In this document: one piece after another, positions 1 through 6,000 of the stretch
How positions within the stretch are numbered: the first letter of the stretch is position 1
Layout: each line of letters opens with the position of its first letter
Assembly (NCBI RefSeq): GCF_045037415.1
Contig: NZ_CP173438.1
DNA length: 64,000 bases
Origin: Escherichia coli
Lineage (GTDB): Bacteria; Pseudomonadota; Gammaproteobacteria; Enterobacterales; Enterobacteriaceae
Strand: one strand, 5' to 3'
Made by a program: the position numbers

Positions 1-3000
1 GCCTCTTTTGACATCAGCATTTTTATCTCTTTTCATAACCATCACTTTGATGGGTGTAGATTGATAAAATGTTTTTTGATTTCAATAATTGAATCAAGTA
101 TGGGTTTGAATAATGAAAAATCGATAGTTTTTCTATTTTCCCTTACTATATAAGTAGCAAATCTATCTTTTCCAAATGTAGTAGAACTGTCATGATTATT
201 GCTTTTATCGAAGCTTTTTCCATTATACTTCATTTGCAAAACTTTTGGTTCAAAAAAATCCTCTAGTGAAGAATAGTTATCCCCTGGTAATAACGGAGTA
301 AAAAGAACATATAAATTACTCTCTAAGTGATAAAACGCCCCTTTTCTAACATCCTCCGCTTTTTTTGGTAGATGCGAATAATCCTTTATTATTTGATTTA
401 TGAAGTCAGATGGCCCTGTGTCATTATCTAATAAAATTATCACTGGATTTTTAGGAGGCTGTTTTTCATACGCTTTACAAAGTAAACCATGTCGTCTGAA
501 AAACCTCGAATAGTCTGCAGCTCCACCAGACAAATCGAGAAAATATTTTTTCTTGTCATTGGTTTTAAATAAATTAACTTTTAACACTCTATTCTTTGTG
601 TTTTTTTCCTCTCTAACTAACTGAGGGTAATCCAAAAACAAAGAATCAATTGCACACTTAAGATAAACCGGGTCAGTTTTCCCTTCTGTTAAGATTGTTA
701 TTTGCTCATTTCCATAGAAATTTTTATAGTATAGGAATTTGCTGTATGCTTTCTCTCTGGAGTTAAGTCTCTGCTTAAAATCCAACCCAAATCCTTTAAC
801 CACATATCTCTCAGGACGCGCATTTTTCTTTGCTTCCACATTATTATATTTATCAAGCATATCGATAAATGCAAATCGCCCTTCTAATTCACTAAGGGTG
901 CCCTTTCTATGTTTTCCATCTTTCTCAATAAGTGTATACGAACCTTCAAAGTATAAAGAATGCGCCATCGCTCTTGTATTCTTTATATACTCTCTGCTTA
1001 CATTTATTTTTTTATTTACAGTTAAACCTGTAACTTGCTGTCTTGATGTACACCTAGACACTCTGTTTTTATTATGGTTTAAAGTGAAGCCTGCACGATG
1101 AATTTCTTCTACCAATATCTTACCTGGTTCGTTTTCTTTCTCATTAGAAACTAATGCATCAGGGATGTTTTTTTTGTTTGTTGAAAACGTAATGTCATCT
1201 GCATAGCGGCTGTAACTACAACCATATGTGACTGCTAGCTTTGATAATCTGAAATCTAAAATCCTACAAATAAGATTAGTTATTACTGGAGAACAAGGGC
1301 TTCCTTGCGGAAGCGATCCATCCAGGCAGGCTATCTGCGCAATAATGGTTGCAACATTTGGATGTAACTTGAAATTTTGGTTTGCAATAAAATATCCTCG
1401 CACGCGACCAAAATTAAAGGATGGGAAGAAATTCTCAATATCAATATTAAATACAATATTTTTATCTCGATGCCTCTCAGCATTTGTAATTATAGTTTTA
1501 TTCTTCTCAAAACCATGTGATACATTTTGTTTAATATTATTTTTTGCCCAAATTTCTTCCTGGCATATATATAGAAGTTCAGAAAGTCGTTGTTGAATAT
1601 CTTTCAGTTTTTCATCAGGAGCAAAGATCTCCCGCTCTCCTCCAGACTTTTTCTTTATAGTAAATTTTTTGTATTGATTTTCTGGCCTTATTCTATACAA
1701 AACATTAGTCAGAAATGTAACTTTAATCTGAAGCAAATCAGCCAGTTCAAATTTGTTACAACAAGCCTGCAGCCTTGCCAGATAGGTAGGTTTAAACATA
1801 ACAGTAAATTCCATTATTGATTATGTTAATGCACATGCAGGTACTCTTACGCATTTAACGGTGACGCCAAGATGACTTGACGGCAGTCAGAGGGCGAATA
1901 CTCCCGACCTTGTTAACACTGATTGCGATACCACAACCAACAAATCTACCTGCATGTGCCGTATTAAATTAGCATAGTCATCATATAACTCAAGCCCCCA
2001 ATCAATTTTTTTCAAAATCCTCAATAAGTTATAGATGGTTTGCGTTCTGTTCATTTCTGGCATCAGAGTGATGATTAGGCAAGTTAGCTGGGAAAATTTA
2101 TCCGGAGTATATACAAAGAAAGTAGTCAGCCCAGTTGAATCATCTAAACAAGACCAATTAACTAATTTATTTAAATGAAAAATAATGCTTTTGAGCTAAC
2201 CAATTATGCACTTAAGCTAAATTTACCGTTTTTGGGGCTAGCCCAACATCGAGGGCGCATAAGCTTTAGCCCACTTTTACTTTCCTGTTTTCTTTAGTAA
2301 CAGAAGGTTAACTATCAAATATTTTTGTTGGGCTATGTGGGCTAACAGTTTTCATATTTACGTGTTTTTTTATTCTTCTCCGGTTTCCGTTTCAGATACC
2401 GGAGTAAACAACAGCGTATAAGCCCAGGGACGTGCATGCTTGAGGTGTCTCAGCCGTGGCATACGTATCAGCCATCCCTCCACGCTGGTGGACTTTTTGA
2501 GCATTCCAGCCTCATGAAGGATTCTGCCGGCAGTATCCTTGCTGAGAGGAGTAGAACCTACGCCCTTCGCATTACGAATGCGAGCTAACTCCAAAATGAG
2601 TACGAACATGAGTACAAAAAAAATATATCATTAAATGTAGTATAAATTTCAATCAGATACAGCAAAAATTACAATTCAACGTCTAATTCCGCTAATACTA
2701 CTCTGGCGGTTAATAACGAGCCATTATGTGAGTTGCACGTAATGGCTTTTTTACGCCTGCTACGCGTCTTCTTTCAATTCTGAGTTACCAAAACTCATAA
2801 TCAGACTCCTGACAATATTAACAATGCAGCTTTTATGTGATAACAATCACAGTGCATTAACCGTTCAAGAGTTTGTCATGAAAAAAACATTTACCTTCAG
2901 CCTGTTAGCAATTGTCTTTGCAAGCCTGTTGAGTGCTTGTGTTCCCCACCATCATCACCGCCACAGCGATGGCCCTCGTGGTCCTGCGCCCTCCGGTAAG

Positions 3001-6000
3001 CCAATGCCACCTTCAAATGGTGGACCAAATCACGGCAGTCATGGTCGCTATTAATTAGTAATTCATAGCGGGAAAGTACATACTCTCCCGCTATCCACGG
3101 CGCTTAAACTGCCCTGCATCAATGCCATGTTGCTTCATTTTCCGCCACAGCGTAGTGCGGCCGATTCCAAGTAAAGCCGACATTTCCTGAATGCGACCGC
3201 CTGTGACTTGGGCTGCGTTAATAATTGCCTCTTTTTCAACTTCCGCAAATGACAGACTGGTGGAAAGGCGGGTGGCGCTGACATCATCTGTCGCCTGCTC
3301 GGTAAACAGATGTTCCGGCAAATCACTGACGCGAATGCGCCCATTATCACTACTCAGAGCAAGATTCTCGATGACGCTGTAAAGTTCAAAATCGTTGCCA
3401 GGCCATGCACAGGAAACCAGGCGAGCGAGGGCATCGTCATCAATTTTCAGCCGCGTAGAGAAGCGTTTTTCAAGGCTGCGTAATTTGTTATTCACCAGCG
3501 CCGGAATGCTGCCACGCCGCATACGCAGTGGCGGGATGGTAATTTCAAATGCATGCAGCGCGTAATACAGCTGGCGACTAAAACGATTTTGTTCCACCAG
3601 CATTGCGAGGTCCGCGGTCGTTGTGGCAATCACTTTGACATCAATGGGTATTAAACGCCGCGCATCCAGTCGCGTGATAACACCCTGCTTGATAACCTGA
3701 AGCAAAGCAGACTGTAACTCCACCGCCAGATATTCAATCTTTTCAAGAAACAGCGTGCCGCCGTGCGCCAGTTCCAGCCGACTCAGACGGCCATTTTCAT
3801 TATCCGTGCGATCGCCACCAATAAATTCTTCCGCCAGCGCCGCATCACCATATAACTCACAATTGACGGCGATATAAGGCCCCGCTGCACGCTCGCTTTC
3901 ATTATGAATTGCCTGACTTAGCAGTGCCTTGCCCACGCCCTCTTCTCCACAAAGCAGGACAGGAAAGCTACTGCGCGCCGCCTGGCGACCAAAATGAATC
4001 AAGCGGCGGGTTTGCGGATCGTCCTGTGGCATATGAGCGAAGGTATGGCTGACTTTTCCTAATTGACTGGTCATTAACTGCCGCATCTGTTCCACAGGAT
4101 GGAGCAATAAAATAAAGCTGGTTCCCTGCGTTTCTATTATCGGTTTAAGGGTTATCACCGCATCAATAAACTGATGCTGACTTTCAAAGGTTGCTTCTAC
4201 GTGTTTGAGCGGATGTGCCTGTTTTATTGCTTGTTGCAATACGGCGGGTAACGTTAAGAGTTCAGTGATTGCCCTTCCCTGACTTGCCGTCGCGTCAAGG
4301 CGCAAGACTCGCGCCGCCTGGGCGTTGATAAATTGCAAATTACCCTGCTCGTCCCAGCTAATCACGCCATCATCCATACTTTCTAACAGGGCATTAAGTT
4401 GATTTAAATGACGGTTAGTTTCAGCGAGCAAACTGTCCGTCAGCAGTAAATTTCCGACCTCGCGTGCGATTGCCAACGTCAACGGCAAATCAGCTGCGGT
4501 AGTTTGCTCAACCGGACACGCCAGCGCTATTGTTCCCGTCAATCGGCCCTTGCTGTCAAACAACGGCGTTGCGCAAAAGGCCCAGTTCCAGAGTGCCTGT
4601 TTGAAATGTTGATCGGCCATCGTTTTCACGGCCTGACCAGAGATAGCCGCTAACGATAGCGCACAAGTACCAATAATTCCCTCGGCGCAATACGTGCCGT
4701 CATTGAATCCCAGTACACTTAGCTGCTGCAAGGTTTGCGGATCGCCATTACGGCTGAGAATGCAGGCGGTTTCATCGAGGATAAGCAACGCACACTCTCG
4801 CGGTGCCATATATTCCCAGGCATCTTCCAGCGCAGCCTGCCCGAGCGTCAGCATCGCTTTCTTACGCCGATAAATAGAAGCAAATGTCACGCCCTGGGCC
4901 TGGTGTGGTACGTTCCATGTCTCCCGTTTCATCAGCTTATTGCATCTCTCCCAGGAGGTTGCAATTAAGGGAGATATGCCCCGACCATCGTTGTTAAAAG
5001 CGCCACTCATATCCCGCATCCCTTATGACAAAAGGTGTTCCGGCTCGCAATTTTAAGTATTAATACACGTAAAAGTTTCAATATGGAACACTCATTAAAG
5101 CATATGTTTCACTATGAAACATAATTTGGGCTAATTTTCTTTTCCCTTGCCTGATGCACAATGGATTCATCGGCAGTCAGTGGTCGCCGTGTCGTTGAAC
5201 ATCATCCATGCCCTACCGTAATTGCTGGAGCAAAATAATGAAAAAATTGATCAATGATGTGCAAGACGTACTGGACGAACAACTGGCAGGACTAGCGAAA
5301 GCGCATCCATCGCTGACACTGCATCAGGATCCGGTGTATGTCACCCGAGCTGATGCCCCCGTTGCAGGAAAAGTCGCCCTGCTGTCGGGTGGCGGCAGCG
5401 GACACGAGCCGATGCATTGTGGTTATATCGGTCAGGGGATGCTTTCGGGGGCCTGTCCGGGCGAAATTTTCACCTCACCGACGCCCGATAAAATCTTTGA
5501 ATGCGCCATGCAAATTGATGGCGGCGAAGGTGTACTGTTGATTATCAAAAATTACACCGGCGATATTCTTAACTTCGAAACAGCAACCGAGTTACTGCAC
5601 GATAGCGGCGTAAAAGTGACCACTGTGGTCATTGATGACGACGTTGCAGTAAAAGACAGTCTTTATACCGCCGGGCGACGCGGCGTTGCCAACACCGTAT
5701 TAATTGAAAAACTCGTAGGTGCAGCGGCGGAGCGTGGCGACTCACTGGACGCCTGTGCGGAACTGGGGCGTAAGTTGAATAATCAAGGCCACTCAATAGG
5801 TATCGCTCTCGGTGCCTGTACCGTTCCTGCCGCGGGCAAACCTTCTTTTACCCTGGCGGATAATGAGATGGAGTTTGGCGTCGGCATTCATGGTGAGCCA
5901 GGTATTGACCGCCGCCCCTTCTCTTCCCTTGATCAAACCGTCGATGAAATGTTCGACACCCTGCTGGAAAATGGCTCATACCATCGCACTTTGCGTTTAT

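Follow-up and report, generated by a model that had tools for sequence, protein, structure and literature searches.

A small histidine-rich reading frame beside dhaR in Escherichia coli: a probable lipoprotein gene confined to the genus

Is the 58-codon reading frame that lies beside dhaR in some Escherichia coli genomes a gene, and what might its histidine-rich product do? The frame was found in a 64,000-nucleotide (nt) stretch of E. coli contig NZ_CP173438.1 (assembly GCF_045037415.1), here called the window, where it runs from an ATG at 2878 to a stop codon at 3052-3054 on the plus strand (ATG AAA AAA … TAT TAA). The Prokaryotic Genome Annotation Pipeline (PGAP) calls the 58-amino-acid (aa) form a hypothetical protein (WP_001311636.1), as it does WP_001362932.1. 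The full translation is MKKTFTFSLLAIVFASLLSACVPHHHHRHSDGPRGPAPSGKPMPPSNGGPNHGSHGRY, which divides into MKKTFTFSLLAIVFASLLSAC, a signal peptide ending at the lipobox Cys21, and VPHHHHRH…GRY. The frame is almost certainly a real protein-coding gene, and the main parts of the gene and its predicted product are as follows.

2878..3054, plus strand: coding sequence of the small lipoprotein precursor (UTI89_RS06730, old locus tag UTI89_C1396), indicated by selection on the frame and by RNA sequencing (RNA-seq) counts
2878..2940, plus strand: predicted type II signal peptide with n-region MKK, core TFTFSLLAIVFASL and lipobox L-S-A-C, Cys21 at 2938-2940; cleavage and lipidation are predicted
2947..2964, plus strand: histidine cluster HHHHRH, residues 24-29, beginning three residues past the predicted lipidated Cys
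2965..3051, plus strand: Pro/Gly-rich tail SDGPRGPAPSGKPMPPSNGGPNHGSHGRY, with a second His pair (NHGSHG) near the C-terminus

The coordinates, length, lipobox, HHHHRH cluster, Pro/Gly-rich tail and dhaR neighbour agree with a first-pass annotation of the window, whose observation is thereby confirmed and whose cautious interpretation was largely right.

Selection on the reading frame and its transcription

The status of the frame as a gene rests on comparative conservation and not on its motifs. Lipobox and HHHH motifs also arise in random open reading frames (ORFs), and alone they are no proof of a gene: among the 434 window ORFs of at least 40 aa, a loose lipobox rule is passed by four (about 1%) and HHHH occurs in two. 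Conservation of the frame in related genomes, which the first-pass annotation had named as a test of its proposal, was found in four Escherichia species and in 17 of 17 loci carrying the ORF. Syntenic copies in the order ychF-ORF-dhaR are present in E. coli, E. marmotae, E. whittamii and Escherichia sp. E1V33.

Substitutions in the frame are distributed as in a coding sequence. Among nine distinct DNA alleles, 15 of the 22 variable columns are third codon positions (binomial P=9e-4), a concentration that the alternative frames lack. Pairwise ratios of non-synonymous to synonymous divergence (pN/pS) are 0.03-0.18 for all pairs except the closely related L002 locus and E1V33, whose value of 0.46 reflects five changes, 2 synonymous and 3 non-synonymous. 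The neighbouring genes, compared across species, give pN/pS values of 0.06-0.07 (dhaR) and about 0.01-0.02 (ychF). In the mature part by itself, 11 of the 14 variable columns are at position 3 and pN/pS is 0.05-0.13; the disordered tail is therefore constrained as protein. The sole length difference is an in-frame addition of 6 nt that adds Pro-Gly in E. marmotae and E. whittamii, and frameshifted versions in the protein database form only clusters of one to three members. Residues H25-H27 and H29 are invariant and both His clusters are kept across species; database variants of the first cluster are QHHHRH, HHHHHH and one HHHH-deletion form.

Transcription of the ORF is seen in strain UTI89, both in lysogeny broth (LB) and in urine. 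In the normalised counts of PMC9241551 (Data Set S1 Tab 1, six LB and urine samples), UTI89_RS06730 (177 nt) has 192, 104 and 130 in LB and 102, 104 and 81 in urine, a difference that is not significant (log2 fold change -0.57, adjusted P 0.28), and dhaR (1920 nt) has 311, 319 and 346 in LB and 204, 377 and 288 in urine (log2 fold change -0.17, adjusted P 0.78) (PMC9241551). By these tabulated counts the small gene has about 4.7 times as many reads per nucleotide in LB as dhaR, which argues for a transcript of its own and against spill-over.

Two other readings of the same DNA were rejected. A 76-aa form from ATG 2824, present in a mechanically made ORF list, has the codon ATA at its start in E. 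marmotae, and the amino acid of the next codon changes freely; the old UTI89 tag UTI89_C1396 denotes a 231-nt form. An antisense ORF (2897..3028, minus strand) differs in length from species to species, and the substitutions are out of step with its wobble positions. It is annotated in the original UTI89 record as UTI89_C1395 (UTI89 1331644..1331829), which is probably a spurious call.

Predicted export, lipidation and control region

The product is very likely a lipoprotein. Read from ATG 2878, the precursor conforms to the PROSITE PS51257-type lipobox rule ([LVI][ASTVI][GAS]C, Cys at 15-35, a charge within the first 7 residues and an uncharged hydrophobic h-region): M-K-K at residues 1-3 supplies the positive charge of the n-region, and an uncharged core of 14 residues leads directly into L-S-A-C. 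Residues L17, L18, S19, A20 and C21 are invariant in nine protein variants from two species and in all 17 loci, and the E. marmotae orthologue carries the UniRef name 'Lipoprotein'. The canonical signal peptide and invariant Cys21 thus bear out the lipobox noted in the first-pass annotation. The same annotation placed the histidines on a surface lipoprotein, and surface exposure finds no support; Val at position +2 would by default leave the protein on the periplasmic face of the outer membrane.

From these sequence rules a path to the envelope can be proposed. Sec would export the precursor, Lgt would add diacylglyceryl to Cys21, signal peptidase II (LspA) would cut before Cys21, and Lnt would N-acylate the new end. 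E. coli lipoproteins with Val at +2 default to the outer membrane, periplasmic face, under the Lol sorting rule; with Val rather than Asp at that position, this one would be delivered by Lol to the outer membrane's inner leaflet. The mature peptide therefore probably sits on the outer membrane facing the periplasm, as a 4-kDa, 38-residue lipid-anchored peptide that would have no fold of its own (composition P8, H7, G7 and S4). The AlphaFold2 model has a helix at residues 3-20 only, the remainder being coil with predicted local distance difference test (pLDDT) values of 56-64. The working parts would be HHHHRH near the anchor and NHGSHG at the free end, with the Pro/Gly-rich segment as spacer between them.

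Upstream of the ATG lies a compact and highly conserved region with the following elements.

2719..2752, plus strand: ychF-type intrinsic terminator, a 12-bp stem followed by a T-run, forming the upstream boundary of the small gene
2818..2847, plus strand: promoter-like site TTAACA-18 nt-AACAAT from a consensus scan, its -10 element within the CRP palindrome
2830..2877, plus strand: near-invariant 48-nt block with the CRP site, a putative start site, the 5' leader and a weak Shine-Dalgarno sequence, adjoining the ATG
2836..2851, no strand assigned: perfect CRP-type palindrome TGTGATAACAATCACA, centre 2843.5, 34.5 nt 5' of the ATG

The ychF-type terminator, which sits directly past ychF in genomes without the insertion described below, is predicted to insulate the small gene from upstream transcription. 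The 48-nt block has one variable column in 48 (six-sequence alignment, four species) against 15 in 57 third codon positions (nine alleles; Fisher P=6e-4). TGTGA-N6-TCACA has this single match in the 64-kb window, with 0.03 expected; the extended form TGTGAT/ATCACA also fits, and the palindrome is invariant in 17 of 17 loci and in four species. Both promoter hexamers are likewise invariant across species, with variation confined to the spacer (about 2825-2828) and to the region upstream of the -35 element.

A sigma-70-type promoter with its -10 element inside a consensus CRP site would thus drive the gene, and cyclic AMP (cAMP)-CRP would be expected to silence it, not to activate it. For class I or II activation, a CRP site should be centred at about -41.5, -61.5 or further helical turns ahead of a start site that is itself 5' of the gene; at 34.5 nt from the ATG the palindrome is too close for this, and a -41.5 placement would start transcripts at about 2885, inside the ORF. 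Repression is predicted because the palindrome covers the -10 hexamer and is centred so close to the ATG. That CRP does repress the gene is a fair conjecture, to which we would give slightly less than even standing, and a CRP site at a repressing position makes it a directly testable regulatory prediction.

The gene is monocistronic, stands between unrelated genes and has an upstream region that is its own and conserved. Its downstream neighbour dhaR (3091..5019, minus strand) is convergent, with dhaKLM beyond it, and the proximity to dhaR seems incidental given this orientation and the separate conserved upstream region. One further element lies between the two.

3065..3094, no strand assigned: stem-loop between the converging ORF and dhaR, overlapping the dhaR stop codon

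A 71-nt fold around this stem-loop has a free energy of -19 kcal/mol (z=-3.4), and other species retain the stem in altered form. No intrinsic terminator was called there by the scan, and there is no U-run on either strand; the small-gene transcript might run antisense into dhaR.

What the histidines may do

The explanation that fits best as a whole is that of an Escherichia-only, monocistronic lipoprotein gene with metal-binding His clusters, repressed by CRP; it is offered tentatively, at somewhat less than even odds. The His clusters would bind a divalent metal (Zn, Ni or Cu) reversibly at the periplasmic face of the outer membrane, the peptide acting as a small metal buffer or hand-off site. 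Its parts differ in strength. That the function depends on the His residues is marginally favoured, with seven His in 38 residues and a disordered tail constrained at the amino-acid level as the points for it. That metal binding is the physiological role is doubtful, and it is preferred because the chemistry of such clusters is generic and because a His-rich Mycoplasma lipoprotein has been tied to nickel. Metal binding had been suggested in the first-pass annotation from the His clusters; it is chemically plausible and otherwise unsupported, with no metal operator upstream and the CRP palindrome as the sole strong regulatory signal.

Several observations weigh against this explanation. No Fur, Zur, NikR, CusR or CueR operator better than shuffles was found in 2690-2900, by a crude consensus count against shuffles and not a weight matrix (best matches: Fur 12/19, Zur 14/23, NikR 8/12, CusR 12/20, CueR 7/14), and a missing metal-regulator operator is unusual for a dedicated metal-homeostasis gene. 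The known orthologues show little total divergence, so conservation of the histidines is by itself weak evidence. The Shine-Dalgarno sequence ('GAG') is weak: its pairing energy is -2.4 kcal/mol, whereas the first ATGs of long window ORFs have a median of -4.9, and a pairing at least as strong precedes 40% of the window's ATGs. The promoter-like match taken alone is at chance level (one found, 1.2 expected), and the text of PMC9241551 leaves the strandedness of its RNA-seq unstated. Insertions in the small gene were recovered by transposon-directed insertion-site sequencing (TraDIS) in UTI89, with no significant fitness effect in comparisons that cover broth passage and a bladder-cell infection cycle (logFC -0.18, p=0.74; 1.42, p=0.11; 0.24, p=0.75) (PMC11495030). 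The gene is dispensable under the conditions tested, although statistical power was little because the target is only 177 nt. Most E. coli lineages, K-12 included, do not have the gene, and in one strain, HH45 (L003, 4740-5270), it has been destroyed: K-12-type fragments of the autotransporter gene ycgV are joined to the 3' half of the ORF and followed by a G-rich insert.

Two other functions are nearly as likely as metal binding, although each is itself unlikely. The peptide might work as a pH switch and an acid-stress element: its histidines titrate near pH 6, so the tethered peptide would turn strongly cationic when the periplasm acidifies, and its contacts with phospholipid, lipopolysaccharide (LPS), peptidoglycan or a partner would shift. 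The computed net charge of the mature peptide rises from +2.7 at pH 7.5 to +8.3 at pH 5.5, the lack of a metal-regulator site upstream fits this proposal, and if CRP represses the gene, it would be on in glucose-rich, medium-acidifying conditions. A precedent exists in the His-rich periplasmic domain of PsaF of Yersinia, where, as in MyfF, clustered periplasmic histidines are proposed to read pH (PMC8407435); PsaF, however, resides in the inner membrane and acts together with the regulator PsaE, whereas the small gene has no linked regulator. The upstream region speaks against an acid-stress element, as consensus matches there for RstA, PhoP and OmpR are no better than shuffles (nor are those for CpxR, RcsB, PhoB and sigma-E), and the tabulated UTI89 counts do not change significantly from LB to urine. 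Alternatively, the conserved disordered tail could be a linear binding motif for an envelope protein, with the histidines in the interface rather than serving as ion or proton ligands, much as in an LptM-like adaptor. The rate of change in the tail is as low as in a folded enzyme, a usual trait of binding motifs, and the product resembles LptM (YifL, of the LPS translocon) in its precursor length (about 60 aa), its type II signal peptide and its disordered, Pro-rich mature part with Tyr as the last residue. In the UTI89 table its read depth is close to that of the lipoprotein gene next to dapF, which from gene order we take to be yifL. The match to the NCBIfam LptM model (NF047847) is weak (E=0.045, 13.9 bits against a cut-off of 27.7) and limited to residues 1-21 of the signal peptide, for which reason it was rejected as a family assignment; the mature parts have no homology, LptM has no His cluster, and LptM is widespread across Enterobacteriaceae whereas the small gene is found in Escherichia only. 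No partner gene is linked to this monocistronic gene, and any partner would have to cope without the peptide in 76% of E. coli.

Two more explanations carry far less weight. It is highly improbable that the segment is kept for reasons of DNA or RNA, as a CRP-controlled non-coding transcript or the dhaR 3' region, with an incidental ORF. The greater conservation of the upstream 48 nt, the weak Shine-Dalgarno sequence, the lack of a TraDIS phenotype and the loss of the gene from most E. coli would suit such a segment, but the position-3 substitutions are specific to the ORF frame, the one indel is in frame, and antisense ORFs differ in length between species; there is also no Rfam match at the locus, and the leader and 5' coding region fold in an ordinary way (z=0.23). 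Least credible of all is export without lipidation, giving a free secreted or periplasmic peptide, cleaved by signal peptidase I or released, with for example a signalling or antimicrobial role. Short cationic His-rich peptides can be membrane-active and the signal peptide is compatible with Sec export; the lipobox, though, is canonical and invariant, and no immunity, transporter or processing genes lie nearby.

Several other small or His-rich envelope proteins invite comparison. Hrl (MG_149), a His-rich lipoprotein of Mycoplasma genitalium, is proposed to capture nickel at the cell surface (PMC6968530). It resembles the small protein in being a lipoprotein with a His-rich region, but has a mass of about 32 kDa, is Fur-regulated and has an energy-coupling factor (ECF) transporter as partner, whereas the small protein is 4 kDa when mature and has neither a metal operator nor a linked transporter. 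The acid-shock protein Asr of E. coli is likewise a small, disordered, basic, His-containing periplasmic protein whose charge rises at low pH; it differs in being soluble, Lys/Ala-rich, about 100 aa long and acid-induced. No sequence relationship to Hrl or Asr was found in an exhaustive HMMER search. The entericidins EcnA/B, OsmB and Lpp also have a lipobox and a monocistronic gene, 40-80 codons long and often under stress or growth-phase control, and in these features the small gene resembles them. Their mature parts, by contrast, are amphipathic-helical or of the Gly-zipper type and have no His run, and they were absent among the matches of the word-indexed and exhaustive HMMER searches.

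Distribution and history of the locus

The small lipoprotein is, as far as its sequence can be traced, an orphan of the genus Escherichia. Searched exhaustively with HMMER, 1.84 billion representatives yielded no relative outside the genus; one 1035-aa match (P0027) was rejected as a tandem-repeat artefact aligning to the hydrophobic core. The word-indexed search matched 12 proteins, Escherichia throughout, and a scan of species-representative genomes added two further Escherichia species only (E. whittamii and Escherichia sp. E1V33). Searches of plasmids with tblastn gave large non-mobilizable E. coli records only, and one tblastn match in Rubrobacter was attributed to chance. No match above cut-off was obtained in Pfam or NCBIfam, and none in PADLOC; DUF6769 (Pfam PF20558) was rejected at 14.6 bits against a gathering cut-off of 27, over residues 6-29 of the protein and with a model of 130 positions, and the PDB sequence matches are His-tags only (E at least 0.036). 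The failure of the first-pass annotation to place the product in a named family thus holds across these databases and the HMMER search. In the literature searched, the accessions, peptide string and locus tags are without mention in main texts, and the supplements of a UTI89 small RNA paper have no entry at the coordinates of the gene.

Within E. coli, the segment is present in 1296 of 5426 complete genomes (24%), nearly always as a PGAP 'hypothetical protein'. The 94% allele is carried by UTI89, S88, APEC O1, IHE3034, NU14 and the type strain ATCC 11775, and the allele of the window also occurs in CD306, a strain featuring in sequence type (ST) 131 papers. Among these carriers are well-known extraintestinal pathogenic E. 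coli, and UTI89 and S88 are of ST95 type. The named strains belong to phylogroup B2, which suggests that the gene may be a trait of B2. The two E. coli alleles (window 2878-3054 and L002 5176-5352) differ with a pS of 0.20 against 0.028 in adjoining dhaR, and the ST95-type allele is nearest to that of Escherichia sp. E1V33 (pS 0.05). This excess over dhaR suggests either old allele classes or recombination from another clade at the spot of the small gene.

Genomes without insertions have the order prs-dauA-ychH-pth-ychF-[small gene]-dhaR-dhaKLM. The interval between ychF and dhaR is dimorphic, holding either the 0.4-kb small-lipoprotein segment (about 24% of complete E. coli) or, as in K-12 (NC_000913.3 1252986-1256720), a 3.7-kb segment with ycgV. 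An origin of the small gene as a remnant of ycgV was rejected, as K-12 shares no similarity with window 2690-3097. The three-way similarity of HH45, ycgV and the ORF arises because HH45 is a recombinant; it is a single strain and the sole genome in the 80-90% identity band. The presence of the gene in three other Escherichia species suggests that the small-gene arrangement is ancestral and that ycgV replaced it.

In the strain of the window, a defence island, of which positions 42-2692 lie in the window, separates ychF from the small gene.

42..1814, minus strand: retron Ec67-family reverse transcriptase, in the defence island
2675-2692: 18-nt copy of the ychF 3' end, TTCAACGTCTAATTCCGC, a repeat at the right end of the island

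In the identical strain SK1144 (L001), the annotation lists a retron Ec67-family reverse transcriptase/endonuclease, an IS5 and, further left, an ABC-three-component system. The gap from the reverse transcriptase gene to the small ORF is about 1.1 kb in the window and 2.1 kb in SK1144, and the shorter gap suggests that the window lacks the IS5 of SK1144. An Rfam search of 1800-3300 gave no retron msr RNA. The small gene as part of this island was rejected, as it is present in island-free genomes and lies beyond the island-side repeat of the ychF end. Two other genomes (L012 and L015) have a phage-type integrase directly 3' of ychF; with integrases past ychF and the repeat at the island end, the 3' end of ychF seems to be a hotspot for integration. 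On the other side, the longest dhaR ORF is 642 aa (MRDMSGAF…, start at 5011-5019); PGAP gives 639 aa from MSGAF…, and a 642-aa dhaR call is carried by L016.

Taken to its furthest, the evidence could describe a young, Escherichia-specific peptide, rich in His, anchored by lipid and under catabolite control, which would sense or buffer metal ions or protons where the outer membrane faces the periplasm, kept in B2 extraintestinal-pathogen lineages and cryptic clades and overwritten by ycgV elsewhere. This full account is speculative and rather improbable; if true, it would offer a tractable, recently born envelope protein with defined chemistry, overlooked and never examined because K-12 does not have the gene. 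Small proteins are under-annotated and under-studied, and the present analysis moves this ORF from 'hypothetical' to a transcribed gene under selection. The gene, so far uncharacterised, adds to the very small lipoproteins, a familiar class; it occurs in known B2 strains, and its carriers include UTI89 and S88 (ST95-type), CD306 (ST131) and the type strain of the species. Should the His cluster bind metal or sense pH, the peptide would be a minimal new component of envelope homeostasis in pathogenic E. coli; otherwise, it would be one more dispensable lineage-specific small lipoprotein.

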